Shown here piece by piece: positions 24,101-60,814 of a stretch of 64,000 bases of DNA. This DNA comes from Nageia nagi (lineage: Eukaryota > Plantae > Pinophyta). The stretch covers positions 133,796,001-133,860,000 of the forward strand of contig JBITNC010000001.1 of NCBI GenBank assembly GCA_050084985.1, written 5' to 3'. Each line of letters begins with the position of its first letter. Positions within the stretch are counted from its first letter, which is position 1. A program made the translations under genes and the position numbers. The notes beneath the pieces were generated by a model. It made no database searches. It saw only the letters and a program-made list of their open reading frames with translations, and had not been told where the DNA came from.

Positions 24101-24186
24101 AAATAATGATGAAATCATTCAAGAGTGCATATCCAAACTTAAGGCAACATTTGAAATCATTGATCTTGGTTTTTTGCATTGCTACC

Positions 24187-26588: not shown

Positions 26589-28681
26589 CTACCTTGGTAT
26601 GTAAGTGTACCAATACAAGAATTTTACCTACCTTAATTAATTCAAGTATATCTCATATATGTTACAAAATTTTAGAGTGGAGGAATGCCAACCTGTTGCA
26701 ACCCCAATCTTTCCTAAAATCACTTTATTTCTTAACTCCAACTCTCAATTTATAGATATTACCTCTTATAGGTAATTAATTGGTAGCCTTCTTTATTTAA
26801 CTATCTTTAGGCTAGATATTACCTTTGCAGTAAATATTATGGCACAATTTATGCAAAAATTATATGTTGAGCACCTCAATGTTGTTAAACAAATCTTGAG
26901 GTATGTTGTGGGCATGAAGGATCTTGCTCTTAAGTATTCCAAGTTGCCCTCATTTGTTCTCTCAAGGTTCTCAAATTCTAAGTATGAGGGAGATTGAGAT
27001 GATAGGAAATCAACCTCTGCTTGTGTGTTTAGAATGGTTTAGGTGTTACGTCTTAAGATTCCAAAAAGAATTCTACTACTTCTCTCTCCACCATAGAGGC
27101 TAAATATCAAACCATGTTAGTCACAACCAAGGAAGCTATTTGGTTGAGATATCTTCTAAAATAAATTGAGTATGAGCAATCTCACGCATATCAAATTTTT
27201 ACAAATAATCAATAGGTTATTACTTTGGAAAATAACCCTATTTTCTATCAAATAATAAAACATGTTGAAATCCAAGCATATTTTATCAAAGAGAAGATTC
27301 TAGATGGTATCTTACAATTTTAGTATTTTCCATCAGTCCTAAACTCCATTTATTTTTTCACCAAGCCCCTTCCTAAAGCTCAATTCTACAAGATTAAGGA
27401 TTCTATTGGGTTGGTGAAGTTATTCTCAAGGTGGAGTGAAGGTTTAATTCTTGTTGAATTCATGTTTGTGATGACAACTTCATCCCTAGGAGTTTTTTTT
27501 GATGGTATAGTGTTGATATTTTTATGTACATCTTCATGGTTAGTTCACTCCATGTGAAGAACTAGTTGTACATTTTGTTTCTTAGCATATGATGACTTAT
27601 GCTAACATTGTTTTAGTTATCCATATATGAGAAAATAGTATGTGCTTTTTGGCACTATTTATTCATCCATATGTGAGTAACTCATATGTGCTTATGCTCT
27701 ATTTATTTACATAGATCAACACATATTTTCTACACAATAGGTGACTATAAGTATTGGTTTGACATCTTCGTGATAATTTATAGTGCACCATTAATCATTT
27801 CATGAATGATATTAATTATTTTATTTATCTTATGTTGATATGAATATTTGTAAAATGCATTTGATTGATCTTATTTATGAGTTGCTTATAGCTTGCAGGT
27901 TTCTTCTTGAGAATGTAGGTTACCTACTTCAAATGGGTATGCTCAAGGACACTCACCATGTCAACTTGTTGTTGAATGATTACTTTGTACAGTGAAACCA
28001 GTTGTGGTTAATGATTGTATTGTAAATCATTTTATCAAATGGTAAAGTAGTGAGTTTCAATCTAAGATCTTATTTATTTCTCAAAGATTTAAATGTTCTC
28101 ATATCCTATTATAAGTCTATGGAGGAGAACTCTTTCTTACTCTTTGATTCTTCTCTCCTTCACTCTACCCCAATATTGCATTAAAGGAAAATCTTGAAAT
28201 GTATAATGCATTATTGTAAAGTCTCTTAATGTAATTCACTAATACTTAAAAGTATCCCCAGATACCTTTTAAGTATTTGTGAATATAATAATATAACTTG
28301 TCCTACACTCCATCTCATGAGCCTACCCCTTGAGTAAAAAGGTGATGCATGTCATGACATTGTACAAAGGTTAAAAAGATGATCCAAGAGAGGATTTTGA
28401 CCTATAAATAGAAGGCCCTCTCTTTCATATTACTCACTTAAGTTTGTAGCAAAGTTATCTTGTTTAGGTTGTAGGAGAATTGAATTGTAAGAGAGTGCTC
28501 TTTGAGAATAAGATCTTATATTTATGGATGAACTCCCATGGTTAGAAGAATCACTTTATATTGGTATCATCTTGTGTGAATGCTACTTTGAGTATGTGTT
28601 CTTAATGCTTAAGGAGTTTAGAGTCTTCATGAGATCTTAGGTAATAGGAAGTTAGTCTTTTATGCTTGTTCCTTCACACTA

Positions 28682-38731: not shown

Positions 38732-41700
38732 TGTTGGGGGCTTTTTCTTTCCTACCTTGCGAATGGCAAAATGACTTACAAGGCTTGCGAAAGGCACCAA
38801 CACCTAAGTAGGTGGGCATTACCCCTACCCGCTATGAGGATTGGTTACCTCAAAAGGTCTCATGAAATGGATGCGCGAGAACAAACTCGGAAGACAGGCT
38901 AGGATGTTTAAAGCTATTACCAACTCAAATAAAATTTGTTAACCAAGGATTCAGAGTGTCCCTGTTTCCATACAAAGGTAGTTTCTCTTAACAAAACAAA
39001 CAAAAGGGTTGCAAAAGCCACGGAAAAAAGTGAAAAATAAAGAAAAAGGTTGAGTAGACAGTGATATGTGAGTTTAAGCACAAGTGTTTAATGGTCTCAT
39101 CAACTAGTACAGGTTTAAAGAATCAACTCTCACGGTCTTGTTACAGGTTCCACGCACTCCGATTCCGCCTTACTAGTCAACAACACGAGTGACCTAGCAA
39201 GAGTAGCTTGAAGCTAAGGCAATGATGGTAACTGACAGGACATGAGTAGACCTTTGACAACAGACTGAAGTTCCTATGTTACGTAACATATGGGAGCCAT
39301 CTCAAAGTATACAAGTCTAAAATGCAAACTATGAACCGTTACACAACCATGCACTACTTGAGATACTTCTAAAGATATTCAAGCACTCTTTTGTCCACCT
39401 TAAGCAAGATTTACAAAACGCACTATGTACTCTGGACAACACAAGATAGTAACATCTATTCACATTCATAGTTCCAATGAGAGAATTCACCATTCAATTA
39501 CTTGAAATATATTACATTCACAAATTCAGAAAACTAGCAAGCTTGAAAGTATTAAGTTGTCCAGTTTGCAAAAATGTCTAATCACCTAACAACTGAGCCC
39601 TTATGGCCTATAAATAATTTTTCGACGATACAAAATGTTGCCCTAACTCTAATTAGGTTTTTCAAGAAAAACAAATGCGGTCCAATAATAAATCGCCAAA
39701 TGGCGTTACAAGATCTCTTCCAACACTTATGGGAGCAAATCCTCACCCGTCACAAGATTGGGAATAAAATAATAATTAAAGTCTTTTTCTAAAAATAAAA
39801 ATATTTTGCTGAAATAATAAAATAAAATAAAATAAACTATGATGATGGTGGCCTTAAGGCCACAACTTTGTCCTCGAAATCGTCCTCTAGGAACTTCGTC
39901 GTGAACTCCAAGTCATGCAACATCTCGTATGTCCTCTCAAAGTTCTTTGCAACGCAAGCATCAACTTTGGGAATGATCTACTCCATTTCTAACTTCCAGG
40001 CATGCACCTTCATCATGTATCTCACATGACTTCTTATTTAGTAGGCGCTGATGTCTTCGGTTAGCAACAAGCTTTGTAGCACGTGTTCTACTTCTGCAAT
40101 CATCTCATTTGGTTCTCTGATGATGGTATCTTCCTCAATGAACTTAACTTCATACTCCATTTGTTCCATGCATGAGTTTGCCTTATCATTGATCTTTGTA
40201 ACCTCCTTGCTCACTTCCTGGCAGCAAGTACTCATATGTCGTACTACCCCCAAGAAGAACCAGTAATTGCCATAGAATTTGACATATTCCAATCTCCTAC
40301 TCCCTGTTGCCTAAAAATTCTCGATGATAGGTCTCCAAGACTCCAACCTCCTAAGGAACTCTATCCTGTTGGTCACGATCCCCTTCAGCTTCTCTTTTTC
40401 AATAGAGATCTTTTGCAAGGCCTCCACAAACTGTGCTACCACTACAAGTACCTCCTCAATCAGATTTGTCTTAACAGCCACCAACCCCTCCTTCAATGGT
40501 TTCACCTTCTTAAGTTCTTCAGGGGGTATCTTGTCAGACTCCATCTCTCGTGTAATTCTTCTCTACGTTGCCAACTCCTTCTTTAGATTCTTAATTTCCT
40601 TTTCTTTATGCAATCCGTCCTTTGTTATTGTACCAACATTTGGCTATGATGGAGTGTTTCCTTCCAACAATTCCAATAGGGCTTGTGTTGATCATTTGAT
40701 TAATCTGCTTGAGATCTTCAGGTTTCTATGGGTTAGCCTTGTCTGTGTACACGATCTTGATGTGAACTACATTGTTGGTCATGTGTACATATGTTTGGCT
40801 CTTCTCTGGGCTAGTGGAGCTCTCTCCTACCTGATCATTACCTTCGACATCTCCAAACTCCTCTCTGACATCCATGTTAAAGACATCAAGGCACTCATCC
40901 ACGTCTATACCCCACTCATCGTTTGGTGGGTCTCAACAATGGGCTCCTGAGTGGTAGTAACATTATTTCTTTGTCTCTTAAGATGCCTTGCCTCTTCACT
41001 AGCACTGTCTTCATCACCTCCTTCGGATGGTTGTGACTATGGAGTTCTCTTCAACTGCAACCTTCTAGGAACTGACTCAGAGACTAGACTCTTCCCTCTT
41101 CTTCGGAATTTGGAGGGGTTTGATGAAGTGGAATTGTGTACCACCTCCAAAATCCGCAAAAACTCTTCTTCTTGGGCATTTGGAACTTGGATAGGCTGAC
41201 CTTGGGTCTCTCCTTGTTCACCAACCTCCTCTTGATCATTTTCTTGGCTATCTTCTAGTTCATAGATTGCACTAGAGGACGAGGAACCTGAGGGTGCAAT
41301 AATGGTGATAGGACATTGGCTTGGCTCTCTAGGAGGTCTTTGTGGAGGTGATGGATCTTCTACTCTATTCCTCACACACCTGACTCTTTTATCTGTTGCT
41401 ACCTCTTCCAACTCCTAAACATCATGCTCATCTGCTATCCCTTTCACTTGCTCCACTACTGTCTCTACATAATCTTTCCCATGCATAGAAGCATATTGCC
41501 CTATTGGCTCTTCATTCATTAAGGCATACTATGTGAACCTTGAAGTAGACTCTTCTTGTCCCTTCTCCTTAATATGTGACAACCTCTTGTCTATAGTAGC
41601 TTCTACTATCCTTTGTTGCTTCTTAGCTCCCTCTTGCAGTTGGGCACGAATCTTCCTCATCTCCACCTCATTGCTCACATTCCTAAACAACTTCTCATCT

Positions 41701-41904
41701 CCAAGTGGCTTATGCTCATATGCCATCTTTCGTTCCTTCATGTAGAAGCTGTGGATTTTGTGCTCCATGTCATATTGGCCTATGACGTTCAACTTCTTGA
41801 AGTGGTATTTCTTCAACTCCTCTTTCATGGTATCCACGTCCACCTAGGTCCTACAATGTTACTCCCCTACTATGACTGGAAAATTGGTGGTGGCTGATTT
41901 ATTG
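38732..41904 (-). mobile_element. Family D copy D1: 3' part of an ORF-containing LTR
   Basis: Ends ...GGAAAGAAAAAGCCCCCAACA on the minus strand. 38732-39780 is collinear with 42859-43850. The 5' part is missing. Confidence 0.85.
39837..41903 (-). pseudogene. C-terminal part of the family D LTR-encoded protein (single frame, nonsense mutations)
   Basis: ORF-track pieces starting at 41843, 41411, 40544 and 40292 share one frame. MKEELKKYHF...YDMEHKIHSFY...YEHKPLGDEKLFRN aligns with D3 MKMELAYYGF...YDPEGVIGAFY...YPHKSLGKLERYRN. Confidence 0.85.
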
Positions 41905-44409
41905 TGTCACACGTGCTCGTGCAGGAAGGCCAATTCCCTTATCATCTCTTTTAGAATCCCAATCACAAATTCAAGTGCAATTAAGCAAATTCAAACAAGT
42001 ATGCACCAATGTTTGACCTAGGGCATCCAATTAAAGCTCAAGCAACACAATAATGCCAACATCTAGCTGACACATGCATACATGTACAAAGTAATCCCAA
42101 TGATGCAAACATGGAAAAGTATACAACATAATATGGAAATCTAATTGCCCAACGGCTGTATTAATGATATGAAGTAACAACAATACAATAACAAGCCCAA
42201 AGGGCTCAATGTTGGCCTTCAAGGAGCCAACTAGCGCACAACAAATGTGACCAATGTTAGATGGATGGGACAATGCTTGGGATAGCCTCAAGCCCGAATG
42301 CTCTGTTGCAGAACTCCCATGCCTGGAAACCACTGAAGGTAGGAATGCGACATCGGAATACCACTGGATGGACTAAGATGCTTCACCTTCGCTTTAGATC
42401 AATAGGATCCCTCAACGTGCTAACCCTCCTAGATGCTGCACCTAGGGATGTGCTTGATGTTGTGCCAAAAAATGTGTCCACTGGATGATATGAACAATAA
42501 TAATAATTTTGTATATCCAGAAATGATGCTCCAAGGCCTAATCTAGCTCACATTGGCTCTGTATCTCACCTCAAAGTCATAACCCAACCCCTCAAACCCC
42601 AACAATGGTGCCTATGGGTCATTCCAGGCCCAACATGGGTATCTGTGCCTCCCTTATGCTCCATGTGGGTCCTCAAGCTCAATGTGGGCCTTAGAGGGCA
42701 TGTGTGGGTATCTGAGTGGCACACGTGGGTGTCACGGGCAAATGTGGGGGTCTAGGAGTCTCCCCAAGGTTGGCGCATGTGTACAAGTGCTCCCAATGTC
42801 AACGTTGGGGCCATTAGGTGAATATCCATGCTTTAAGTGCTAAATAACCATTGGGATTTGTTGGGGGTTTTTTCTTTCCTACCTTGCTAATGGGAAAATG
42901 AACTTACAAGGCTTGTGGCAAGACACCAACACCTAGGTGATAGGGCGTGACCCCTACTCGCTATGAGGATTGGTTACCTCAAACGTCTCGAGATGGGGGT
43001 GCAAGAGTTTACTCAGGAGATTGGTCAAGATGTTTGAAGTTGTTCCTAACTCAAATGTAATTTGTTAATCAAGAACTCGAAGGGTCCCTATCTCAAGAAA
43101 GTAAAAGGATATATTAGACCATGGTGTATGAATTGGGCAAAGTTGCATATGGTTTCATCGACATGTACATAGGATTGGGATTTACTTCTCTTGGGCTTAA
43201 TTTAGGTTCCACACAATCCGCATCCACTCTACTAGCTAACATCACAAATGGACTAGCAAAAGAAGCCTAAAGCAATGGCATGGGTGGAAGAAGGTAGATC
43301 ATGGGTAGATCTTCGATTATGGATTGAAGTTCCTAAGCTAAGCATCATAAGAGATAGCCATCACAAAATGCACAGGTCTAACTATGCAAACTATGAACTT
43401 ATCACAAGTAAAGTTTTACTTAAATCACTTCAGGAGATATTCAACTACTCTCTCATCCACCTCAATAAGGTTTATGAGATGATCCAAGCAACTCAAAATA
43501 GACAAGATAGTAATAGCATTCATCCACTCAAAGTGCACAAATAACATTCATAGTCCCATCAAATGAAATCATTCACCATTCAATTACTTGAAATCACACC
43601 ACTTTCACAAATGGAGCAAACTTGTTTAATTGGCACTAGTATTAAGTCTCTCACAAATCCAAAATGTCTAATCCCCTACAAATGAGCTATAAATAGTTTC
43701 TTTGGCAATCGTAGATGTTGCCCTAACCCTAATTCCAAAATATGAGAAAATACACACGGTTCAATCACAAACTGTCACATGGCATTACAAAGTTTTTTCC
43801 AAACTCGTGGGAGCAAATCCTCATCCATCATGAGTTTGGGAATTAAATACTAAATATAATAATAAAGTTTTTCATCACAATAAACATCATGTTCTTGAAA
43901 ATAAAAATAATTCTCATCCAAGAATTTCACCATGAGTTCCAATCCACACAACATCTCTAACATCTTTGGTCCGTTCTCAGCAACACAACATTCAACTTTT
44001 GCAGTCAGACTTTGGATCTCAATGGAAGTAGTCATGATGCTCAAGTGTATGATGGGATTCTCCAGGAGTGATGTGTAGGTCTTCTAGGGATAAGGCCTCC
44101 CAATGTTGTTTGTCTTGTCTCCTAATTCCTTGTGCAATCCCTAAGATGCAATGGGACGGATTACAAACTCAAAAACTAGTCTTCTTCAATTCTGACGCAA
44201 GAAAAGGAATGCAATTTGTATTTGAGAAAATGAAGTTTTCAAGCTTGTATTTATGGCTGAATTTGGTCTCCAAGAAACCCTAGTCGGCCATGCATGAGGA
44301 AAAAATTCATCCTAGTTGTCCAAATGGCCGACCTCCTGGTGTATGCCCGTTTAAAAATTCATGTCCAACCAACCAAAACCAGACTTGGGGGTTCCAGGAC
44401 ACCTTCAGG

Positions 44410-45255
44410 CTTGGTGCATGCCCATGAAAGACAATATTTTATCTTTCTAAATCGTGCGCCAGCCTTGGGGATGAATGCACTTCCCACGTTGGCCATCCTT
44501 GCTCCTTTGCTCGTGCAACTTGACCTTGAAGCTCATCCTGAGACTTGAACTTGTCTATTTTTGCTCTTTCTGGTGTCCAAGCTTGTCAAATTCAATCTTT
44601 ATGCTCAACTTGGACAATCCCCAAACTTGGCGCATGGTTCAAAAAGACAAGATTTTGTCTTTTTCGAAATGTGCACCCAATTCTCTAGCCTTCCTAGTTT
44701 GAGCACATGATTTTGTCTTTTTCACGCATGTGCTGATTGTAGATGCCCATATTTGTCTTTTTTCGTGATCCTGCTTCAATGCGTTAACCAGATTTGCATG
44801 ATTTTCTCCTCCTCAACGCTTCCTGGGTCTGACGCATGGTTCAAAAAGTCAAGATCTTGTCTTTTGAAATCATGCGCCAGCCCTTCTAGTGTTGCTAGAG
44901 GTGATATTGGGGTTCGAGGCTTCATGCCTTGGTCAAATTTTGCCTTTCGGACAAACTTGATGCCTTTCTAGGTTCAACACATGGTTCAAAAAGACTAGAT
45001 TTTGTCCTTTTGAGGCATGTGCCAGCATCCTAGATGCTTGGGATTGACTTTCACATTCTCGAACTCGTCCTATGCTTGCTCCTGGGCTTGATCACATGGT
45101 TCAAGAAGACAAGATTTTGTCTTTTGAAATCATGCGCCAGCCTTGAAGTGTCTTCTACTTGTCTTTTTCGATCTCGATTCCTATCCAAACTACTCCTTGC
45201 CCTTGGCGCATGCTCCAAAAAGACAAGATTGTCTTTTGGAGGCATGCGCTGGGCT
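44410..45255. repeat. Array of ~46-bp palindromic units with unique spacers in the D2 LTR
   Basis: GCGCATGGTTCAAAAAGACAAGATTTTGTCTTTTGAAATCATGCGC-like units near 44414, 44630, 44702 (short), 44832, 44976, 45092 and 45206. Confidence 0.85.
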
Positions 45256-47559
45256 TCAAAATAGCCGAAATTGCCTGTTGGAGACTTAACTCCAGTTTGG
45301 GCGACTCCCTAACCCAGTCACATGATGAAGCATGCGCCAGGCCTGAGAGTGGCCCAGTTTAACTTGACTATATCCCGACTTGCCTTGGACTCCCCTGGTT
45401 CACCTAAGACCAGCTTTTGGTTTTCCAAACTTGACCATTTTTTTGAGGAATTTCAGATTTTTGACTTGGTATGACTAAGCATAGGCGAAGGATGAGGTTT
45501 GAACCTAGGGGACACGACATTGAATCCAGGTCTTACGACATTACTTAGAATGGACAAGACAAAAACATGACAATGCGTTGACAAGGAGTGATGAGGGTCC
45601 ATGTTGTGTTTTAGTCACAACATAAGCTAAAACAAAAACAACAACAAAACAATATAGACAAGCTAAAACAAAAACAATAACAAAACGGAAGGCAAGTAGC
45701 TTTGACTATGGTGATCAACAATTTTGGGGCAAGCAACTTGACATCCTAAGACAAACCTAAGTAATTGGATATATAGTGACTTGCTTTGTCCACAAGGAAT
45801 GAGCCTGTGTCAACACTGTCACTCATGGCTGCATCGTCGGTTTCATTAGAGTGAGTGAACTATCATTGGTTATTCAAGTAGCCATCTGGACACCTGCGTT
45901 TCAGTCCAAGTCCGAGGACATTGTGTTCATCCAAAGTGTCTGTTCCAACTGTAGTTTCCAAAGAAAAGGGCAACCCGCCCTTGAGCTCGATCGCTCTTAT
46001 GAACGCACCCATCACTTCTTACATCAAATAATCATGTTAGAGTCACCCAAAGTGTCTGTTCCAATTGTAGTCTCTGGGGAAAAAGACAACTAGTCCCTGA
46101 GCTCGTTGCACTCTGTGTAGTGTTCTCGATGACAAGCTTCAAAGATCATAGTATTTTTTTTATTTTGCAAATAAGAGGACACTCAACACACTATTTACAT
46201 TATAGTACAACCCCAAGGGGCTTAAGGTGTAATTGATACCCAGATCAAAAATCTTGTTTTGTTCTCCACCTAAAGGAGTGCATTGTATGTTTTGATCCCG
46301 TTGTAGCATGCCTCTAGAATGAATGGATTATTGTAGTAGATGTCTTGAGTGCATCAATGAGAATGTATCGTGCGTACATGAGGCACTAATCTTTATGAAA
46401 ATCCTTTGCATGAAATGATATAAGCTATTAATAAGAACAAGCAAAAGACTTTCTTTCATGGGCACCTTAAATTAAGGAGTATCATATGTTATGCACGATG
46501 TTGGTATACCAATTTCTTCTACGACTACCATATGACCTTGGCTCTCACCATCTACAACCTCCACTCCTCTAAAAGATGAAAAGTATGAGCATCTGGGCAT
46601 AAGGATGGTGGGACTGTAAGGTCTAAATCTCTTGGACTCCAATTCAAGTTTTGATATCACTAGTTCAAGTTCTTTCAACAAATATCCAGGTTTCATCTCT
46701 ATTTTTTCATCTTCATGTGTCAAGAAATAATCACTAGTGGTATCATCAATGCCTATAACTTGATATTCTTCTATGTATGCCCATTCCTACGCATGAACAA
46801 CAAGAGCATCCCTAATATCCTGTTGTGACAATTCTTGTGCTTGGATAAACAAGGAATCTTCTATATCATCAAACCCTAAGCCAAGAGGCTCATCCATAAT
46901 GGGCTCTGATTCGATTTCACCTTGGTTTTCATTCTTTAGTAGCAATGAATAGTCACTATGGATGATAGCAACATCTTCAAGTTGCCCTTCATCTTGGCAT
47001 ATGGAATTATTTTCATAGTATACATGATTGAGCTCCCACTGTGAGTTCAAATAGTTGCATTTTACTTAACCAATTATCTGAGCCTGAGTAGTTGGATAGA
47101 GCTTCTTCAAGTTCTTTAAACACCAACTCTAGAAACAACTCTACTGAAGGTGCTCCTTCAACTTCCATGGTATCTCCACTCACATGTGGGGTAGATGATC
47201 CATCTGTTCTCACACTCAGGTCTCCAATAGCATGTAGCTCAAAGAGTGGATTCTCAACATCCAACTTGGCCTCCATTTCAAGCAATGGGTTGTCCATAAA
47301 CTGATAGTTATCTTTATGCTACCACTAGGAAATCAGCTCATGATCAAGTTCGTCATCAACACTCTCTTCTTCCCACACATCCTCGTTTAACTAATCTCTT
47401 GAAGAGAGATAAATGAAGGAATCATCTGCAAAGGCCTCTTCATGTAAGGATCCCATAGAACGATGATTGACTAAGGAAGAGCCATCATAGTGTGTGTCTG
47501 ACTCCTTATCTCCATTCTCTTCTTTGTCTTCATCCACCAGGAGGGTGAGATATTCATGT

Positions 47560-48815
47560 TCTTTGAAGACATGTATCCAATCTTTACTAATTATGGCAGA
47601 GACAACACCCAGAATATCAAGCACCCAGATGTCCACAAAATACAAAGATGGCGATCCTATAGGGCGCATGGGAACATTCTTTAAAATATCCATCATCTAA
47701 AAAGTACCATCAACACCTATGGGGTCCTTCTCATCTGCTACTGTTGGGACAAATCCAACATCTAAGCCTCATATGTCATCACATTGAAGTCCATTCTGGA
47801 GCTTAGCATTCAATTGGTAAACTTTTTGTCCTTGAGGCACACAGTTGTTGTAAATTCATGCCTCTAAGCTTCCTGAGCATTCCCTTCTTCATGTTCTAGG
47901 TCAAGTAGCTCTTTTGGTGTCTCTCCACTCTCATTTGGTGGGGCTCATTCTCAAAGAAAAATTCAAAGTCAAGATCTAGGTCTAATATGTCTTCACATGT
48001 GGGTTCGGTTATCCTTTGATCTTCCTCATGGGAGTGGTTACTGACATCTTTTTCACTATCTTCCTCTCCATTTTCAGATGACTCAATAGGTGGGGGAAAA
48101 TATTCTATCCAAAGGAATCCCCATTCCTTGCTAAACAAGATCGAGAAGGCATCCTTACATGGCACATCAGTTACAAAAGATATCCAATGAATATTGTTTT
48201 TCTGATCCTATGGCTCGTATATAAACATTGTTCAACACTCCTATTCGTACATTGCCATCGGAACATCTCAAAATTTTGTTGTAAGGTGTTATAGTAAGAC
48301 CAACTCCACGACATATCGCATATGACATAAAGCTCCGTTTGGAATCAGGATTTACCTTACAACCATGAAACATTTCGTTTCCAGGGCACAATTCTACAAA
48401 GAATGAAGGGGATTGGTGTGCTTCTTCATTTTGAACGAACTCTTTGAATGGGCAAGGATTGAGTTGCTCATTCACCTTGCTATCTTCACCACCTTCACAT
48501 ACATTGAAGATTGAGGAATTGAAGAGGTTTAGGTAGTGGACCCATTTTCTACCCATTCAGATTGGAGTTGGGCATATATCCTTTGGCACGTCTACCACCA
48601 CGAAGTCTAGAGAACTTTTCATTTCTGACCCCATGGCTTGCACACAAACATTCTCTACTATTCCGACCATCTGTGGGTGGACATGTTCCAGGAGGCTTGG
48701 GATTGGGATGCGAATGAGTTGAATTTCAAGACAAGTGGCAAGTGTTATAAGATTGAGATTAGAGCGAGTATCTACCACATAATTATATGAGATTCTTTTC
48801 CTTGAAGGCACAAAG
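47560..48815 (-). pseudogene. Three tandem degenerate retropepsin-like domains
   Basis: VVDTRSNLNLI...VGIVENVCVQAMGS...LDFVVVD...MGRKW; KVNPDSKRSFMS...IGVLNNVYIRAIGS...LDIF...ILFSKEW; MDILKNVPMRPIGS...VDIWVLD...IISKDW. Confidence 0.65.
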
Positions 48816-49769
48816 ATATCCTATTCGACTTGACTTTATCCCGACTTGCCCTGGACTCCCCTGGTTCACCTAAGACCAACTTTTGGTTTTCTAGACTTAG
48901 CAATTTTTTTGAGGAATTTCGGATTTTTGACTTGGTATGACTAAGCCTAGGCAAAGGATGAGGCTTGAACCTAGGGGACTCGACATTGAATCTAGATCTT
49001 GCAACATTACTTGGACTAGTCGAGATAAAAACATGACAATTAATTGACAAGGAGTGATGAGGGTCCCCAAAATTGTAGAATTTTGGGGCATGTTGTGTTT
49101 TAGTCACAACAAGATTCCCACAATCACTTTTTGGGATCTGTAAGTACATTGAATCACACTAATCTACACTTGGGAGGGAGATGTCCCACTTGGGACTCAC
49201 AGAGGGATCCAACGGCCCTTTATGTCTTCTATCCCAAATAATACGCCTAAAGCTCAATTAAATAAATAAATATATAAAAGGGGGAATACATTGGATTCCA
49301 TAATTAATTAAAATAATCAAAAAGGGGGACATCACAAAGCCTCCCCTCTCAAATTCCTTGCTCTCAAGCAATTGTAGAATGCTACAACATATTGTCTTCC
49401 AAGATTCCTTTAGCCTTGTTGGCTGAAGTGTGCTAGAATGGAATGCAACATCAATAAGTCTCCTCCATGGTGAAGGTACTGCACGAAACGTTGAAGCTGC
49501 CTCCTCATGTATCAACATTGCATATAAAAATTCGGATATATTGTTGTTGTTGTCAATCCACATTAAGTACCAAAATCCTTGCAAACATTATAGTGCCATC
49601 ATCCTCAGAAACATAGGAGTGTATGCAGAGATGTTGATGCATCCATCTATACTAGGCATCTAGTTGTAGTAGTGAACATATGGAACCCTCCTAGAAGATG
49701 TTCTTGCAAAAACATCAAGTAAATCAAGCATGAGTAGAAAAAGGTGGAGCCTTTGCTCCATGGTTGTGC

Positions 49770-50460
49770 CCAAGACTCCTCCAAGCTCAACGTTGGGTGT
49801 CAAATTCCCCCAATATCTGACGTGGGGCTCTAGTTCTTCCAGATGCTCAACATGGGGTGCCAAACTTCCTCCAAGCCCATCGTGAAGTGTTGTAGCCCCT
49901 CCATGCTCAATCACGGATGCCAAGACTCCCTTACGTCCAATGTCAAGTCCCCAAGCCTATCCAAGCTCAACGTGGAATGCCAAAACTCCTCTATGCTAGA
50001 CTTTAGGTGTTTCAGCCTCCCCAAGCCCAATGTGAGGTGCCAGAACTCCTCTATGTCATAAGTTGAGTACCTAAGTCTCACCAAACCTAGCGTGAGATAA
50101 CAAAACTCCTCCACGCTTGTTGTGGGATGTTTAGGCCTCTCCAAGCCCAAGGTGGGGTGCAAGAGTCCCTCCATGATCATCATTAGGTACCCAAGCCCCT
50201 TAGTCTCCCATGTGAGGTATAGAAGCTCCTACAAGCCCAACGTGGGGTGCAAGAGCGCTTCCAAGCTTAACGTCAAGTACCAAGCCTTCTCAATGTCAAA
50301 TGTGAGAGGTAGACGATCCTCCATGTCCAATGTGGGGTGCAGAAGCCCTTCAAAGCTCCACAATAGATGCCAAAGCTCCTTTATGTCCAACATGGGGTAT
50401 GGGAGCTCCTCATTGCTCCTTGCCTCGTGACAAGGCTCCTTGATGCTCAATGTGGGCTTA
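49770..50460. repeat. 30-bp tandem repeat, about 23 copies
   Basis: Consensus CTCCTCCAAGCTCAATGTGGGGTGCCAAAG-like; gives a 10-aa periodicity on both strands. Confidence 0.9.
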
Positions 50461-50753
50461 TCTTCTTCCTCCTTTTTCTGACACCACTCAATCACCTCTA
50501 ATCTTTTGTTGGCAACCTGTGGGCAATCATCCTGAATTTCCTGTAAGGTGTGGGTCTTACCATCAATGTCGAAGCTCATGGTGAGATTCATGTGTGACAA
50601 TCCTGTTGCATAATTCTAAATAATACTGGAATCCAACGGATTTCCCTTTTGTATTATAGTTTATCATTTAATTGTGCTTTTATTGGGACAGAAGACTTAA
50701 TGGGTTATTGGACCCCATTGTGAGCCCCAAAAGGGACGTCTCCCTCCCAAGCG

Positions 50754-51400
50754 TGGAAAGGTTCACATGGAAGGGGCTAAAGCAAGACATTTTGAGGCAA
50801 GTTCAAAAGTGTGTCCAGTGCCAAGAAAACAAGGAGGAGCATGTGACGCCAAAAGGAATGCTTCATCCATTGCCCATTCCATAGCAGAAATGAGAAGGCA
50901 TCTCCATGGATTTCATCACTAGACTTCCAAAGCTACAAGGTGAAGACTGTATCTTTGTGGTGGTAGATAGGCTCACCAAATTTGCCCATTTCTTTGCCAT
51001 CACTGTCACATATACAACAAGACAAGTGGTTGACTTATTCTTCAAAGAGATCTTCAGATTGCATGGGTTGCCTAAGAGGATTGTGCGTGAGAGGGACACC
51101 AAGTTTATGAGCCTGTTTTGGCAAGAGTTATTCCTATTGAGTGGCAACAATCTTACCCCAAGCACTAGCTATCACCCTCGAACGAACGGGCAGACAATTG
51201 TTAACAGATGGGTGGAGGAGTACTAGAGAGACTATGTGATCAGGCAGCAGCAAATGTGGGTCAAGTGGATCCATGTTGGGGAGTATTGCTATAACTCCAC
51301 CTATCATGTGTCCATCAAAATGTCTCCTTTTAAAGCTTACTATGGTTATCGTTTACCTAACTTTGCAAACTTTTCTTTTGATGAAGGAAAGGTTCCAAGA
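50754..51400 (+). pseudogene. Chromovirus-type integrase core (inverted relative to its host element)
   Basis: RFTWKGLKQD...CVQCQENK...LHPLPIP...ISMDFITRLP...VVVDRLTKFAHF...LHGLPKRIV..RD..F...STSYHPRTNGQT...YNSTYH...MSPF. Confidence 0.95.
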
Positions 51401-51634
51401 GGGGTGTTATGCAAAGCATAGAGCACTTTCTCCTTCATTTCAAAATTAGGAGTTAGGAATACTTTATTCCTATTCAAGATCAATCCTTCCCTAAACATGT
51501 ACCTCTTGTTCCTCACCGTCCCACTTACGATGCCTTAAGCAAACTCATCCTTAGTGTATTCAACCACTACCATCTTGATAGAAGAGAGAGAATAAAAGGA
51601 TAGGTTTCTTGATAACGCATCAGTAGTTATATTC
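51400..51634 (-). pseudogene. Chromovirus RNase H end / integrase N-terminus
   Basis: NITTDALSR...EYTKDEFA...EGLILNRNKVFL...EKVLYALHNTP. Confidence 0.85.
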
Positions 51635-52599
51635 TGTTGTGCTCGCACAACACACCCCAAGATGCAGCATTTTGGGGACCCTACTTTTTTTGAAGGCAAT
51701 GGATGACATTGCCTTGAGGTGACTATCCGATGGCTAGAGAAAAGAGTTAGAGCGACCAAGTGATAAATCAGTGCACACAAATACCCACAGAGGCACCAAG
51801 TCAGTTCAATCCATCCAAGGGCCATTCTTCGTCGAGTTTCAAGCAACATCAAGCAGAATACAGTTTTGGATCATGGTAGTAACCAAGAAAGGAGTTTTTG
51901 ACCAAGCGACCAATAAAGAATAAAAAGGCACGTTTTCAAAGCATTCAAGCGCAAGACTGGCAAAGTTGACCAAAAATAGCATTTTTTAAGGAATTCAGCT
52001 CATAGGTGCCTAGCATCACAAAAGGCGCATTTTTTGCAAAATATAGTGCAAAGGTACCTAAGTAGCAAAAATGAGCGTTTTTTGTCATTTTTGAGTTCGG
52101 GTGCCTTGAAAATGATAGGGATGACAAAAATGGACGTTTTTGTCCAAGTTGACCCCAAAAAGCTAGAAAAGGGCAAAGGTAGAAAAGCACGTTTGGGTCA
52201 CTTTTGGGTCCAGAATGGTCAATATGGTAAAAAATGGTGTGCTTTGCATGATTTGAATCTGGAAAGCTTAGAAATGACCTAAAGTGATGAATTGAGCCTA
52301 GAACGGTGAAATGCTCAAAAATGCCAAAAATGTCGAAAAAGGTCTTTTTTCACACCAAGGGCTCGAAAATGGACAGAATTGAATACTTTGAACCTGAAAA
52401 TGATGAAAAATGACAACTTTGAGCTTGAAAAAGCAGAAATGGTCGTTTTTGCACCATTTGAGCTTGGAAATCATTGAAAATGCAGAGTTTGAGCTTGGAG
52501 GTGCTTGAAAAGGCGTTTTGATCGAGTTTGAGCTCGGAAATGCCAAGAGTGACCAAAAATGCACAGATTGAGTATGGAATAGTTCAAAAAAGCAAGTTT

Positions 52600-54080
52600 G
52601 AGTGGCCTTGGCCCCAAGTGCATTTTCTCTAGGTATTGAAAACCCAAATGAGGGAAAAATGATGCAAGTTTCTTATTGATAAATGCAAATTGTATCAGAA
52701 TTCGAGTCTAAGAGCGTATTTGAAGAGATAAGGTGAATTCTATCATAGTTAAGACCCAAAATTTTCAATTTTGACCAAGTCTAAGGCACTCTAAGGCAAG
52801 GTGTAGTTTTTCAAGCCTATGGGAAATCCATAGAGATGTATTTTGGCACCTAGATAGTAAAGAAAAAGAGGAAATGCATCAAAAATGAAATCCAAATGCA
52901 TGAATGAATGGAAAAGATGGTTCTAAGCCACATTAAATCTCAAAATTTTTTATTTTGACCAAGTAAAGACCCCCAAAATGCTATGCACAAGTTTCTAGAT
53001 GTTTTCAAAACCATAAAAGTGACAAAATGGCACCTAGGTTGACAAGATAGAATCATTTTTTACCAAAAATCAAGTTTAAGTGCTTGGGACCAACGAAAAC
53101 ATGATTGCAAACACATTTAGGTCTCGAAATTTTCAATTTTGAGCACATTTGAGCACCCTAAAGGCTAGGCGCAAGTTTTGAGTGCTATGGAAATCCAATG
53201 AGATGAAAAATGGTGCCTAGGATCAAGGAATTTGATAAATTTTGGTCAAAATTCAAGTTTGAGGGGTCTACAAGGTGTAAAATGTGATTTCTAGCACATT
53301 TAAGTCTTGAAAAATTAAAAAATGATCAAGTTTTGACCCTCAAAAGGCTAGGCGCAGGTTTGCAAATGTTTCTAATTCCATAGATATGAAAAATGGCATC
53401 TAACTTGGACGGATGAGTGAAAAATGCACAAAAATTTGATCTCAAGGTGTCAATTGCATGGAAAACCCCATTTGACATTTAGAACTACAAAATTCGAATT
53501 TTAAGCAATTTTGTGCCACCTAAAGGGAATCCAATGAAGTGAAATCTAGCACCTAGGAACAAGAGTTTTTGAACAATTGCCTCAAAATCCAAGTTTCAAG
53601 GGTCAATTGCAAGGAAAACATGATTTCTAGCACATTTAAACTTGCATATTTCCAAATTTGAGCAAGGGAAGTGGCCCAAAATCCTAGGCGCACGTTTGCT
53701 CATTTTTCTAAAACCAATGAAGTGAAAATCAACGCCTAGAATGAAAAGGAGTGAAAATTTTGCAAAAAAATCAATTTTTTTTTCACATGGTTGCATGGAA
53801 AAGGGCATTCTAAGCATGTTTAAACTCACAAATTTTCGAAATTGAGCACTAGAAATGTCTCAAAAAGTCAGGTGCAGGTTTCCAAGCCATTGAAGAACCC
53901 AAAAAAGGGAAAATTGGCGCCTAGATGCAAGAAAAAAGCCGCAAAAATCATAAAAATTTAAATTTGGGCATATAGATGGGTGAAGGAAGTGATTTAAATC
54001 ACATTTAAACTTTGAAGTTTTCCATTTTGACCCAAGGAAGTGCCTCAAAAAGTTAGGCGAAGGTTTGTAGTCCTATGGAG
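52600..54080. repeat. ~184-bp degenerate tandem repeat, about 8-9 copies, in D3
   Basis: AGGCTAGGCGCA-like anchors near 52793, 52977, 53161, 53344, 53680, 53863 and 54048. Each unit has inverted CTAGGCGC...GG(T/C)GCCTAG arms. Confidence 0.85.
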
Positions 54081-54182
54081 TGTTTACGGCCTCCAAAAAC
54101 TTAAAAACTATGCAAAATGCACCCCTAGAGAACTTTTTAGGTCAAAAACCCACTAAGGAGTATGCAAAAGGCACAAAAAACC

Positions 54183-54190
54183 TATAAATA
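54183..54190 (+). promoter_or_regulatory. TATA box of the LTR-embedded ORF
   Basis: CCTATAAATA followed by a pyrimidine-rich TCATTT tract. The equivalent motif occurs in D4 (59561-59568, minus) and D2 (44248-44255, minus). Confidence 0.65.
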
Positions 54191-54944
54191 CCCCCCTAAG
54201 CCTCTCATTTGCTCCACAAACACTCTCCTTGAGCCTCCATGCACCCATTTTTGAGCAAAATACTAACAAAAAATCACAAAATTGATCAAAAACTTCAAAA
54301 TTGCTCACAAGATCCAAAATAAGCCAAACCTTGTCAAAATTTTTGAAGGATCTTAGAATTCCATCCTCTATCCACCCATTAGGTCAAAATCCACTTTTTT
54401 AAAATTTTTGAAATTTCAGAACCCCCTATCTTTTGGCCATTTTCAAGCTTTTTGAAAAAAGGTGACAAAACACAGTAAAACACTTTTTCAAGGCCAAATA
54501 ACTCCTAAATTTTGAGTGATCCAAACTAAGAAGTGAATACCAAAGTGATAGATCCCATATAGGAGAGCAACCTCCATCATTTACTTCCCAAAAACGAAGC
54601 TTGAAAACCCATTTCACATCCCTATCTTTTCAAGCTTCGAAGCTGCAAAAACCGGTCAAAAAATGAATACATGGGCTAAAAAAACAGCGAGTTAATTTGG
54701 ATCCCAAAAACTCAAAATTTTTCTCCGAGACCTGGCCACAAGCCTTCTAGATTTATTTGCCAACACCCCATGTGATTGTTTCCCACTTTCAACAAACTTC
54801 AAAATTCTCGAAAATCAACACTTAGCTTCTAAAAAAAAAACAAAAATAAGCGAAAAATTTGACTATCTCTTTTTTGCTCCAAAATCACTCTAGAGATGCC
54901 CAATTCCACTCCCAACACCTTGTTGCACTCCACAGGTTTGAATC

Positions 54945-57257
54945 ATGAGCATTGATAAGAAAAACAAAGATCTCCAAATGGAGAAGCTCGTGAAGGCTAG
55001 CCTGATCACCCTAGAAAAACAAGGGAAGGCTCTCTTCCCTACAGCTATGCTAATAGATGGCCTTGGACAAATTAGGGACACAAATTGGGCAAACAACGAC
55101 CCTGTCAAGTCATTAGAGAAGATGGCCAAGATCCCACACGAGCGACTGTTCAACGATACAATTGTTCAATGCACGATCATTGAAGCTTCTTTGATCCCTT
55201 TTACCGCTCCATTCTCAGAACTGTGCCTTGAGGTAGCAAGATATTACGACACAAAGGAGAAAGTCCTCCTCAACAATGAAGGCACAAAGATACTAGATTT
55301 CACAATGGAAGTAATAGAGACCACATTTGCATGGAGTAACGAAAGCATCATATTCTCTATGAAAGAGTCCATCAAATTCTATAACAACCTAACCAAGCCA
55401 AGGAATTTGATAAGAGACTGGTTAGTTGACGAGTGCAAAGATTACAAGGCAAAGGCCTTAAGTCAACCCAGAAGGATAGACTTCTATCCTACAGTCTCAA
55501 CCATTATCAGTATGTTGTGCAAGATCACGGGACAAGAAAATGATCAAAGATTCAGAAAGGAGTTTGTGGGTTTCATACATCAAATCAGCAGAGGCAAAGG
55601 AATCACATGGAGTAAGATGATCAACAACTGCTTAGCTCAACAATTGTCCAAAATTGTAGAAACAAAGAGATTCTACATGAGCTCTTACTTGGAATTCCTG
55701 CTTCTACATGGCAAGAACAGAAAATCTGCCATAGCCGTTACCAAGTACCTCTTTGATCGAAAAATGCTAGTATGGCGGAGTTACCCTAGATATATGTTGG
55801 AAAACCAATGGGACGAATTCAAAATAACGAATGAAGGATTCAAATGTCGTATATATGCAAAGGTAAAGGGGACCGTCAATATGACCAAGATATCACAAGT
55901 GGCAATCCAAGTTCTTAGAGGACATGCAAACTTTTATCTCGAAGAAACAGATGCCACACATATCAAGGTTTATGGGTCAATTGAGCCACCTTACAGACTT
56001 CCTCGTTATGCAAGTAATTGGTTCATCCTGATGGAATTTTGCAGACACTTATCATACTAACACGAGAAAGTCTAGTGCAAGAAAGGTGCCACCACATGCA
56101 AATTACATATCCGCATAGGGGAATACGAATGCACGTCATGGTGTCAAGTCAAGACAATGAAGATGGAGCTAGCATATTACGGCTTCACAGTAGAACATGC
56201 GGTAGAGTATTATGATCCTGAAGGTGTAATCGGTGCATTCTACAAGAAAACCTGGCAAACCGATTACCCTCACAAATCCCTAGGAAAGCTCGAAAGGTAC
56301 AGAAATATAGATGAAAGAAAGAAAAGGAATGCCAATGGAGAATTTACATTAGTGGTGGAAACACAAGAAGAGCCATGTAAAGCGATCGAAACTTTGGGCA
56401 AGCAACATGCAATAGTTTCTAATGTTGCAACGTTGATAGAGGAGAACACATCACAGAAGGTGGAGCTCAAGGAGCTGAAAAGAGAATTGGCTGAAAAGAG
56501 GAAGTTGACCGTTGATATCCAAGCTGCTAACTTGACAGTTGAAGACATCAAGAAGCAGATCTCATTGAATATTGGGATTCAAGCAGTCAAACAAGAGTGG
56601 ATTAACGAGACCAAAGAGGCTATTCAAGAGTTATTCCTAGGATTAACTAATTTCTTTATTGAAGACAATGGATCGTTCGTCGCTCAAGACAGGATCTGTG
56701 AACTGATTGCCAGGTGGGGCAAAAGTTATCAGGTGATGCATGAGCTAAGAAGGAAAGTTGTTGGCATTCCATTAATACTGGAGTACTATCATCAATTCTT
56801 TTACCAGTATGATTGGTTGTTCTAAGCTATTTCAAAGTGTTAGGATTTCATCCAAGTCGAGACAAATTTCAAAGCAGACATGAAGAAAGAGCTAGCGGAA
56901 TACCAATTTGATCTAAGGCTGATCGAGGAAGATGGACGCAACAAGGACTATTCCACAATAATAAATGAGGTCCAACTGATGATCAACACTTACCTTGAAA
57001 CTGAAGATATTAATGTCCTCAAATCTGGCAAATAGCTCAAATATGGTAGCAATATGGCAGTATGGTGCAGCGAAATGAAGAAGACTTCAAAGACCATCAC
57101 TACATATCTGTTGGCAAATGAAGAGATAATGGAGATCCTCAACACCGGAGTCAAGGACAGAGAAATCTTCATGGGCATGAACTTTGAGGCCACCATCGCA
57201 TCACATGTGCAAACCACAAATCAGCCACAATTTTTGTTACTTTCGAAAATTTTGTAA
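54945..57257 (+). pseudogene. Family D LTR-encoded protein, 770 codons in one frame with five premature stops (possible PMD/Transposase_32-like N-terminus, coiled-coil-like C-terminus)
   Basis: ORFs at 54945, 56157 and 57054 are in frame. Stops at 56058, 56073, 56823, 56841 and 57033 are all TAA/TAG, with no frameshift. Homologues are present in D1, D2 and D4. Confidence 0.85.
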
Positions 57258-57430
57258 ATCAGTCAGACAGGAAAGTTGAGCACCAAAAGTCAACTAACCC
57301 TGCTCTCATGATCAATCAGCCTGACAAGTAGAGCTCCAAAAGTCAGCTGACTTAGTCGTAGCAGGCAACTATGTAATATTTTAATATTTTTTTATAGAAT
57401 TAGGACAACACTTGAAAACCCTAAAAATTC

Positions 57431-57438
57431 TATAAATA
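57431..57438 (+). promoter_or_regulatory. Second TATA box (probable canonical LTR promoter)
   Basis: CTATAAATAG about 1.07 kb before the LTR end. The context TTAGG(G/A)CAACA...AAAAATT is conserved in D1. Confidence 0.6.
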
Positions 57439-58506
57439 GACCCCATGGGGTCACTTTTATGTAGATTGAAAGTTTGGAACATTTCAAGGAATGAAAATGT
57501 TAAGATCAAGTTCAACTTTTTTGTACAAGGAGAAAAATTGTGAAAACTTTTATGTAACTCTTTTACAAAGAAAATACAAAGTGGTTAACGCAAACACTTG
57601 AGTTTGACACTTTTCATATGGATGATATGGATTGATTCTTTGAGGGCACTCATAGTGGGTTTGTGTACTTTCGTTTTATTCCTTTGAAAGCTCTTGCGCT
57701 TTAAGGAAGTTATCTCTGAAAAACATTAAAAGTGCTTGAAGCCTACCTATGTTTGTTGCTTGGTCCTTAGCATGCAAGTTGATTGGGAATTCTATGTCAG
57801 ATTCTACTTCTATGACATCTTGTTAGATCCTTCATCCAAAACCATGATCCATTCACTTTGAGACCTTCCATTTCCATTCAATTGAATCAGTCCTATTCGT
57901 AGAGAACTGACAATTGGCGTTCCTCACCGCTCCTCTTTGAAGCATTTCAAATGTGAAGTTGTTTGCTTGCAAGGTTGGATGAATTGGATGAAGAGTCCTT
58001 AACCGATCTGGAAGAGATTAACTCTTAGACACTTTCCCATCAGTGAACCTCAACCTCATATCTGACCAAGTATTCTTTCTTTCTCCAAGGTGCTTTCCTT
58101 CACCTCTTTACAATATTACCTTTACGCTTTCTTTTTGCTTTCATACCAAATATGATCATTAAGTCCACACACAAAAGCTCTGAACAAACTCTATACATCA
58201 AAGAATAAAACATCGTTGGTTAACTGACTATACACCTATCATTCCATTCCATTGAGGCTGATTCCAAAGAGGGATACCGCACTTTATATTTATATCTATC
58301 CCTATTGAGAAAACACATTGAGCAAACAAACCTTACAACGTCACGACATTGGGGTCGTTGGCAGGGTGTTTCAAAGCCTTGAAGGTACATAATCCTTTTC
58401 AACCGGGGGAATTGGTAACGCATTCCCACCTATGTTGCTTGGGGTCTCCTACGTTTCACCTGCGATATTCAAAGTGTCTTGCATGGGAAAGAAAAACATC
58501 GCAACG

Positions 58507-60814
58507 ACATACTGCCACAGCTCCATACTGGCCACTTCAACCCAAGTCTGACACACATAACTTGCAATTGAGATAGGCAAGTTAATGGTTACATTCTTCT
58601 TCCAGATGTTCTCTTTGAAGAACAAAAGCTGCCTCAAACTCCATGAGGATAAGCCTATCACTAGGATATCTCGAGAGGAGCAGGGGTTGCTCTTCGAAAC
58701 CATAGACTCTAATGAATGTATGGTCAATATCCTGCAAGGAGAAATCTTAATGTACACTGATGGCTTGGACGGCCGCATCAGAAATCCTCTTCACCATAGA
58801 CTCCCCTTTGATATCTTTATAGATATCATACTCCCAATGATCATTTCTCTCATAGAAATGTTGGAACTTGTTCTGGTACCACCACTTTGGCTAAACCCAC
58901 CACAGGGGGATGCCACAAGTTCAAATTTTTTGTAAAAGGAAGAAAATTGTGAAAAATTTTATGTAACTCTTTTACAAAGAAAATACAAAGTGGTTAACGC
59001 AAACACTTGAGTTTGACACTTTTCATATTGATCCTATGGATTGATTCTTTGAGGGCACTCATAGTGGGTTTGTGTACTTTCGTTTTATTCCTTTGAAAGC
59101 TCTTGGGCTTTAGAGAAGTTATCTCTGAAAAACATTAAAAAGTGCTTGAAGCCTACCTATGTTTGTTGCTTGGTCCTTAGCATGCAAGTTGATTGGGTAT
59201 TCTACGTCAATATCTACTTCTATGACATCTTTCATCGGCCAGCTCCTTGGATTTGACCTTTGCCATGCAACAACAGGTACACAAGATACGAGTTCATGTA
59301 GAATCTCCTCGAGCAACCAAAATAAGCCAACTGGTGGCATAGGTCATCACTGATCACCCCACTCCATCAGATAGCTCTCCCCGAATTAATGATTGTAATG
59401 AAGCTTGTAAACTCCTTCCTATACTTAGCATCATTTTCCTAACCAATGACTCTGGACAAAAGAGTGATCAGCTTGGCCACAACAGGCAAGAGCTCTCTAC
59501 GAGCACTGATCAACCTTTGGCCCTGAAGGTTCTGGTAAAAATGACTAAGGGGTGGCTTGATATTTATAACCTTCCAAGTTGCCATGTGTTACCTCTAGGT
59601 TGGTAAAATGGTTGAGCTAAAATAGAGGGCGCATGATTTAGAACGGGTGCAAAACCATGTGCCAAAAGGCATGAAACTGGGAGTGGGGAACTTAGCCAAA
59701 TTTCAAATCATGATGGGGCCCAATTCCTGGTTGCACCATTTTAGAAGAGTGCAAAAGCATGTACCTTAGACCTTACGCCTGGGCTTTTCCTCTAAATTCA
59801 AACACTTTGCCAATTTTACTCCCGGGCCAGAAGGTCTAAGGCTGGACGCATCATTTGGGAGGGGTGCTTTTTCATGTATAACAAATGATGCGATTGGGGT
59901 CTAGAACACCTCCCGAGAGAAGAAATTTCAAAAACATTTAAAACATCACTTTAAAATGCAAATTTGAAACAAGACACGTTTTGGGGTGCGTGCCTTTCAC
60001 CCTTAGCTCCACGCAATGCTCCATACTTAGCCATCCAAACATACTAATTGGGGATGACCTTCCTTTTTTGGCCCTCTCAGATGGGAAAATTGTCATCATT
60101 GATTGCCACAAGAAGGGGTCAAATGCATTTGCTTACACTTATAAACAATCCGAGCCCAACACTTCATCAAATTTCATTTTGTGAATCTCGTCACACGGTT
60201 TTGGGTGGGTGCAAAAGCACACACATGAAAACATGTGACTAGCCTTGCAAGCTCCAAAAATGGCTAAGTCTTCTTCTTCCTAGTCGCACGATTTGAGTTG
60301 AGTGCAAAAGCACACACCTGAAATCATGCGACTGGGCCTTTTCCAAAAAAAATGCTAAGTGTGAGAGCTCCCAGCTTTGGTCGCACTATTTTGGGGATAT
60401 GCAATCGCATGTCCCTCAAAACATGCGATTGGCTGAAAAACATGTTTTTATCTTGAAATTTGAACAGAATGACATTAAACATGAAATGCAATGAAAGAGA
60501 AATGAACTTTTACAGCATGAGAGACCTGAAAGTGCAATTTAAGGCTGAAAAATGCAGGCGTGAGTGTGAAAATGCAGCATGAGGTTGGTCGCACCTTAGG
60601 GATGTGCAAAAGCATGTCCCTCAAAACATGCGATTAAGGACAAAAGTATGTTTCTTACTTGAGTTGATCATGAACGTGCATGTTTAACATATTTCCTAAA
60701 GCTAGACCAAGTTGCACACATTTCCTTTAGACAAATGTTTACTTCCACGCATTGTATTTTATTTTCGAGGTTCCTCAAAAAGTAAAATTTTGGGTTTGTT
60801 GTGCAAGCACAACA
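58507..60814 (-). mobile_element. Family D copy D4: 5' part of an ORF-containing LTR, internally deleted
   Basis: Starts TGTTGTGCTTGCACAACA at 60814. ORF remnant IG*ENDAKYRKEF...RRFYMNSYLVYLLLHGK...IRVYGFEEQPLLLSRYPSDRLILMEF aligns with the D3 protein. Confidence 0.85.
58916..59231 (+). repeat. ~315-bp near-identical copy of 57507-57821 inserted in the D4 ORF
   Basis: Direct comparison from CAAGTTCAA to TATGACATCTT shows only scattered substitutions. Confidence 0.95.

Follow-up and report, generated by a model that had tools for sequence, protein, structure and literature searches.

Can a retrotransposon of a plant carry a protein-coding gene inside its long terminal repeat (LTR)? The question is raised by D3, a member of repeat family D in the gymnosperm Nageia nagi, which occupies positions 51635-58506 (plus strand) of the 64-kb window (the whole stretch of DNA analysed, 64,000 nucleotides). 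D3 contains a decayed open reading frame (ORF) next to a tandem array of short inverted motifs, and three related copies (D1, D2, and D4) are found in the same window. With a probability of roughly 0.5, D3 is the solo LTR of a gymnosperm retrotransposon, and the U3 part of this LTR bears a decayed gene for a protein with the predicted fold of VANC21 (the protein of an Arabidopsis DNA transposon) and PMD proteins, located beside an array that the protein would bind against silencing.

Limits of the unit and position of the ORF

D3 begins with TGTTG (51635) and ends with CAAC(G) (58506). It is 6.9 kb long as read and was ~7.9 kb long before an internal deletion. These limits agree with the preliminary description of this DNA, and so does the layout given there: a hairpin at the 5' end, a repeat array, a TATA box at 54183, CCACAG before the ATG, and another TATA box at 57431. 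No second long frame is found in D3, and tRNA and Rfam searches gave no match.

The other copies are all on the minus strand. D2, the sole two-ended element in the window, consists of D2a (48827-49111, a 285-bp remnant of the 5' terminal repeat with left flank AATCT), a collinear interior of 3.2 kb (45623-48826), and D2b (42859-45622, the 2.76-kb 3' unit with right flank AATCC). D2b has a hairpin, its own motif array, a TATA box, a C-terminal remnant of the ORF (~43907-44044), and the terminus. D1 (38732-41957) is the 3' half of a diverged unit and includes the ORF from residue 361, the linker, the C-terminal domain, and 1.1 kb up to the terminus. D4 (58507-60814) is the 5' part of another diverged unit, with the hairpin, a short motif array, and ORF residues ~155-410, and is cut by the 3' end of D3. 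D1 and D4 are therefore half copies, and the four copies represent diverged subfamilies with protein identity of 27-41%. The idea that D1 and D4 are halves of a single element was rejected, since both contain residues 361-407 of the ORF, in differing versions. Inside the D4 ORF is a 316-bp piece of D3-family sequence (58916-59231, plus strand), 94.6% identical to 57507-57821. A small amount of D4 sequence has been lost alongside, and the piece resembles templated repair DNA.

Both ends of the unit recur among these copies. The 5' terminal double hairpin (51635-51678, plus strand) is common to D3, D2a, and D4 (folding z = -3.0, -4.8, and -3.2), and D2b has the first hairpin only. This first hairpin occurs four times in the window, in D3, D2a (49111), D2b (45622), and D4 (60814), and in none of 100 shuffles. 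The 3' terminus, GGAAAGAAAAA...CAAC(G) (58486-58506, plus strand), is also found in D1 (38732) and D2b (42859). A conserved hairpin at this 3' terminus was considered and rejected, as its z values lack significance. D2b runs from TGTTG to CAACA, D1 ends with CAACA, D3 ends with CAAC(G), and public contigs show CAACA, so that the unit has the TG...CA ends of an LTR.

The motifs of the two termini are confined to their own ends in D3, D2b, D1, and D4, the sole exception being a weak match with four mismatches in the D3 array. Neither motif is present in the D2 interior or in L001, a 5.7-kb metagenome contig that is 75-86% identical to D3 and lacks termini; L001 also lacks the weak match. Apart from this weak match, no terminus motif separates the ORF from the hairpin or array in D3, D2b, D4, or L001, and no hairpin is found between the ORF and the end in D3, D1, or D2b. 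To the extent that six sequences can show it, the ORF of several subfamilies thus lies within a single terminal unit, with one terminus on either side.

Contigs from four public sequencing runs were used for depth and boundaries (note that contig depth is not copy number). The whole D3 unit is covered by contigs in all four runs, and depth rises sharply at 51635 (16- to 41-fold) in each of them. No RNA data set was among the runs listed as containing the sequence, which has no bearing on expression. Among the matches listed, left flanks at 51635 are heterogeneous (agreement 0.45 in 19 contigs), and so are right flanks at 58505 (agreement 0.57 and 0.53, with four contigs in each of two runs). 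Because the hairpin and the terminus recur, contigs cover the unit, depth steps at 51635, flanks are heterogeneous, and the end is CAACA, this is a high-copy family with genuine unit limits.

The unit is probably an LTR. The preliminary description stated that it behaves as one, that its first 285 bp recur at 49111 in D2, and that D2 is bounded by a target-site duplication (TSD). The recurrence is confirmed, with 27 of 262 aligned sites differing between D2a and D2b. The outer flanks of D2, AATCT and AATCC, match at four of five positions (chance ~2%), so that the TSD is supported but imperfect; D2b alone has none. The D2 interior contains two tandem segments, which a motif marks as protease-like, and an acidic stretch. 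These segments are internal duplicates of each other (score 63, 0 of 500 shuffles), and no reverse transcriptase (RT), RNase H, or integrase was noticed in the interior. The repeat, the flanks, and the protease-like interior favor an LTR, but this status is held back because no primer-binding site (PBS) is seen, D2 has no polypurine tract, and D2 is one deleted element only. Another claim, that the N- and C-termini of the ORF are fused in D2, is not supported. Only the C-terminal remnant is there (~46 codons, score 83, 0 of 500 shuffles); no N-terminal homology was found in it, and the N-terminus was rejected.

Two further observations concern D2. At 48100-48790 (minus strand), the protease-like segments are followed by a long acidic stretch with no RT noticed, and D2 is possibly a non-autonomous derivative. 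At 45623-45660 (minus strand), a duplicated T-rich tract is found where the polypurine tract would be expected and a perfect hairpin opens the unit, which may represent an unusual site of plus-strand priming.

The encoded protein and the motif array

The ORF of D3 (54945-57257, plus strand) was initially described as a 770-codon frame. The frame is present, but it has five in-frame stops (codons 372, 377, 627, 633, and 697) and lacks ~990 bp of linker at 56315 compared with L001. The same position is where 11 contigs of one run diverge from D3. L001 came from a search for longer loci, in which metagenome contigs gave this sequence and genome and viral contigs gave none; L002-L007 were dropped as chance matches to short terminus patterns. 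Because L001 has ~990 bp more at 56315, the family protein is estimated at ~1,100 amino acids: an N-terminal domain of 457 residues, an E/S/P-rich linker of ~335 residues, and a C-terminal domain. None of the ORF copies seen is both intact and full-length, L001 itself having a stop at codon 758, and no longer or fused forms of the protein were found, which is weak evidence. D3 is a dead, internally deleted copy, and the suggestion that every solo LTR leaves a complete transcription unit behind does not hold for it.

Past selection on the protein, also proposed earlier, is borne out for the N-terminal domain (54945-56315, plus strand). The three conserved protein motifs given there for D1 and D4 (G.END...RKEF, RFYM.SYL..LLLHGK, and I.VYG....P..L.RY.S...ILMEF) are present in D3 and D4 but not in D1, whose remnant begins at residue 361. 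Between D3 and L001, the ratio of nonsynonymous to synonymous divergence (dN/dS) is 0.15 (bootstrap 95% interval 0.11-0.21; 455 codons of 1-457), which is not close to 1, and differences at the first, second, and third codon positions number 43, 38, and 107 (457 codons). This pattern indicates that the ORF protein was functional, with its N-terminal domain under purifying selection. The C-terminal domain (56316-57254, plus strand) is probably helical or coiled-coil and is homologous to the D1 C-terminus; its Pfam matches are weak and below the cut-off. Synonymous divergence between D3 and L001 reaches 0.37 in the N-terminal domain, as against 0.14 (leader) and 0.15 (C-terminal part). This difference may stem from mosaic ancestry or from constraint on the leader.

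The ORF protein has 136 relatives among 1.84 billion representatives, and two of the ten distant-relative clusters looked up are hypothetical proteins of Taxus chinensis. Structure models have predicted local distance difference test (pLDDT) scores of 80.9 and 87.9. In the L001 relative, the N-terminal domain (residues ~40-316) is predicted to have the fold of VANC21, the protein of VANDAL21, a Mutator-like transposon of Arabidopsis (DUF1985/PF09331; PDB 9LNK). It is reported that VANC and PMD folds are similar and that MAIN/MAIL proteins act through DNA motifs (bioRxiv 2024.09.27.615353). Atlas searches with a distant relative (P0099) gave as leads a PMD-named cluster (0.86) and DUF1985 (0.85), both below 0.9, and those with a close relative gave no usable match. 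PDB sequence searches assigned no family. A homodimer prediction for the C-terminal domain scored 0.00, with the alignment not used. The models therefore predict a VANC21/PMD fold for the N-terminal domain. The guess of a PMD-like protein made in the preliminary description is supported by this predicted fold but not by Pfam, where neither PF10536 (PMD) nor PF20167 (Transposase_32) is matched.

Upstream of the ORF is the candidate binding array (52740-54165, plus strand). Seven units of ~180-186 bp were found, each with the inverted pair TAGGCGC-N40-GCGCCTA, partly decayed. The array of L001 has nine units of ~183 bp with TAGGCGC in each, and in eight of the nine the reverse complement is found 40-41 bp downstream. 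Over these nine units, all 14 motif columns are conserved, compared with 44 of the remaining 156. The inverted pair of D2b is another one, TGGCGCATG, with 8 matches (at most 1 in shuffles), and D4 has a third, weaker motif with 5 matches (at most 4 in shuffles). Neither D2b nor D4 has the D3 motif, and D3 lacks that of D2b. The motif of D4 is not as exclusive, as it matches twice in the D3 upstream region. VANC proteins are known to bind short tandem-repeat motifs that differ between families (PMC5735166, PMC10398659). Likewise, family-specific short motifs are found here in the cognate tandem repeats, suggesting that subfamily-specific arrays are the targets of the protein. 

The period of the L001 array (457-1929), ~183 bp, is near the nucleosome repeat length. 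The observed/expected ratio of CpG (CpG o/e) is 0.16 in positions 1-38700 of the window and 0.4-0.6 in the D units, which may reflect younger insertions or partial escape from methylation.

Mechanism and alternatives

The mechanism proposed for a complete element is as follows. U3 would run to the second TATA box (57431-57437, plus strand), the putative LTR core promoter, around which a block weakly resembles D1. The gene would be transcribed from the first TATA box (54183-54189, plus strand), a putative promoter that is present in L001 too, and the transcript would end in R. It may contain a 5'-leader intron (54383-54935, plus strand), whose GT and CCACAG are kept in L001. The protein would then bind its own array, perhaps as an oligomer. 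Given the fold, there is an even chance that it does so and counters silencing. Reverse transcription would copy U3 to both ends, so that gene and target sites are inherited together, twice per element. Solo LTRs would retain the cassette of gene and array, and ORF-deleted copies such as D2b, which keep the array, could be served in trans.

Several results weigh against this reading. A full-length element with both units whole did not turn up in the window, L001, or the public contigs, and the 5' copy of D2 has been reduced to 285 bp. The public contig ends and the six sequences showed no PBS, and the window has no surviving 5' LTR end. In front of D2b (45622), the sequence is T-rich with 6 purines in 20 positions and no polypurine tract, in what is a single old and deleted copy. 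The protease-like segments match nothing in Pfam or PDB. D3 itself has no TSD (TATTC on the left, ACATA on the right). It is flanked on the left by pol-like sequence (presumably RNase H/integrase, judging by a motif) and on the right by the D4 ORF; recombination between two neighboring family members, or a flanking deletion, would most simply explain such a copy. Contig depth relative to the ORF is 1.8-3.1x at the 5' terminus and 0.9-3.0x in the 3' part, ratios that could arise from an LTR-borne ORF but also from short LTRs or frequent deletion of the ORF.

The evidence on the protein and the array has similar weak points. PMD (PF10536), DUF1985 (PF09331), Transposase_32 (PF20167), and ATHILA (PF03078) all lack a match in the Pfam scans (E<=1 for 2 proteins and for 68 alignment members, E<=0.05 for 40 proteins). 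Foldseek found nothing at E<=0.001 among PDB and viral folds, VANC21 ranking 31st with E = 3.9 in one search. The C-terminal dN/dS is 0.55 (0.32-1.10) in a part that is decayed in both D3 and L001, and saturation affects the comparisons with D1 and D4. Column conservation, significant in L001, is not so in D3 (motif 4/14, other 24/153, p = 0.26). The array evidence is suggestive only, because the motifs were picked after inspection and tandem units share ancestry.

Two alternatives concern the unit. In one, the LTR reading is wrong: the unit is a self-contained TG...CA element with one gene, moved by a borrowed integrase or transposase, and D2 is a composite of two units around captured sequence. 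The missing PBS and purine tract would then be natural, as would the hairpin terminus that the unit has of its own, and VANC does originate from DNA transposons; D2 is also the lone two-ended case, with no confirmed retroelement domain in its interior. This is quite unlikely, as the TSD pairs the left flank of D2a with the right flank of D2b, the D2 interior is collinear and protease-like, and a second conserved TATA box lies 1.1 kb before the end, as in an LTR. In the other alternative, full-length elements have ordinary LTRs and, like Ogre or TatIII, a single extra ORF between them, and D3 is a deletion chimera in which the outer halves of two such LTRs were joined. Rearrangement is heavy in this region (D3 without TSD, an inverted integrase fragment, the D3 piece in D4), public contigs are deeper at the termini than over the ORF, and extra ORFs of the PMD and PMD-coiled-coil types have been described between LTRs (PMC4408406, PMC6317226). 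Such a chimera is nevertheless also quite unlikely. It should leave an LTR end between hairpin or array and ORF, or a hairpin start between ORF and terminus, and neither is found in the copies that cover these parts (D3, D2b, D4, and L001 for the former; D3, D1, and D2b for the latter). The same deletions would also be needed independently in several diverged subfamilies.

A third alternative accepts both the gene in the LTR and the PMD/VANC-like fold and assigns another role to the protein: transcription activator, Polycomb antagonist like MAIN/MAIL, or chromatin or integration factor, with host factors reading the array. Likeness of fold shows no function, and PMD proteins are reported to include host silencing and anti-Polycomb factors (bioRxiv 2024.09.27.615353, PMC5418596). 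CpG o/e is no higher in the arrays (0.41-0.56) than in the ORFs (0.48-0.62), that is, there is no local footprint of demethylation. This alternative is unlikely, since subfamily-specific inverted pairs in a tandem array adjoining the gene match the VANC pattern.

If D3 is a solo LTR with an anti-silencing gene, VANC-type anti-silencing extends from eudicot DNA transposons to gymnosperm retrotransposons. A broader version is tentative: gymnosperm retrotransposons may have moved a VANC-like anti-silencing gene together with its co-evolving target array into an LTR of ~8 kb, and thousands of solo LTRs may remain as trans-acting anti-silencing genes. If true, this would be the retrotransposon counterpart of VANDAL/VANC with a possible role in the growth of conifer genomes. 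A gene of ~1,100 codons in such an LTR is probably missed by LTR finders at the usual size limits, and a high-copy family of this kind could be mis-annotated as host "hypothetical proteins", as its distant Taxus relatives are. Note that the candidate protein and its candidate target motif adjoin and vary by subfamily, which makes the function of PMD-type extra ORFs of retrotransposons directly testable.

The rest of the window contains other repeats. At 49334-51634 is a rearranged host gypsy-like element, with a plus-strand integrase core (rve, E = 0.0019) within minus-strand pol-like sequence, a ~90-bp tandem array, and an LTR-like start that D2 has invaded. Copia gag and SH3 remnants (PF14223, PF25597) are found at 21217-25223. 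A dispersed repeat of ~350-460 bp with 72-82% identity exists at 1-340, 1511-1973, 16845-17360, and 28227-28676 in the AT-rich left part.

Comparison with known systems

Many plant gypsy elements have extra ORFs of 250 codons or more, and a survey with LTRs up to ~5 kb classed these as 5' or 3' of the polyprotein (PMC6317226). PMD and PMD-coiled-coil ORFs are reported in Tat lineages, including gymnosperm TatIII (PMC4408406, PMC5418596). One review places such supplementary ORFs solely in the internal region (PMC7264820), and a meeting report offered nothing about genes carried by LTRs (PMC12859917). No plant ORF inside an LTR was found in literature searches, whose scope excluded subscription papers, Repbase, and supplements.

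One likeness is to the PMD ORFs of Tat/Ogre Ty3/gypsy elements. Like the proposed D3 gene, these are accessory genes of plant LTR elements with a PMD-like globular domain and a probable coiled-coil tail, and elements of this group are reported often to have large LTRs, tandem arrays, and 5-bp TSDs (PMC6317226, PMC4408406). Unlike the D3 ORF, which is in sense orientation within the terminal unit, the ORFs of Tat/Ogre are described between the LTRs (5' and sense in Ogre, 3' and antisense in TatIII), and the D3 protein has no PF10536 match. Of the domains by which the Tat/Ogre lineage is recognized (RT, RNase H, integrase, and an additional RNase H), none is linked to a D copy in the window or to L001. 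The D3 unit, at 6.9 kb (~7.9 kb undeleted), is also longer than the Ogre LTRs, which are given as 1.9-6.5 kb (PMC6431247). The host PMD-C proteins MAIN, MAIL1, and MAIL2 resemble the D3 protein in that their structure is reported to be similar to VANC and that they act through DNA motifs (bioRxiv 2024.09.27.615353). They are host genes, whereas the D3 gene is element-borne, and the likeness is drawn from published descriptions.

VANC21 shares the predicted fold, but identity is 7-10% and PF09331 is not matched. It comes from a eudicot DNA transposon, whereas the D3 gene is on a TG...CA gymnosperm unit, its binding is only predicted, and its motifs are inverted pairs 40 bp apart. An origin from a VANDAL-type Mutator-like element does not fit the TG...CA ends, the 5-bp flank match in D2, or the lack of a second long frame in D3. 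An ORF inside an LTR is known from sag of mouse mammary tumor virus (MMTV), which is located in U3 and is thus present at both ends. In this respect MMTV sag is like the D3 gene, but it belongs to an animal retrovirus with far shorter LTR and ORF, and no homology is expected. Gene23 of Grande, a Tat element of maize, is similar to the D3 gene as a nuclear accessory gene with its own promoter (PMC7264820). Unlike the D3 gene, gene23 is described as antisense and in the 3' internal region, outside the LTR.

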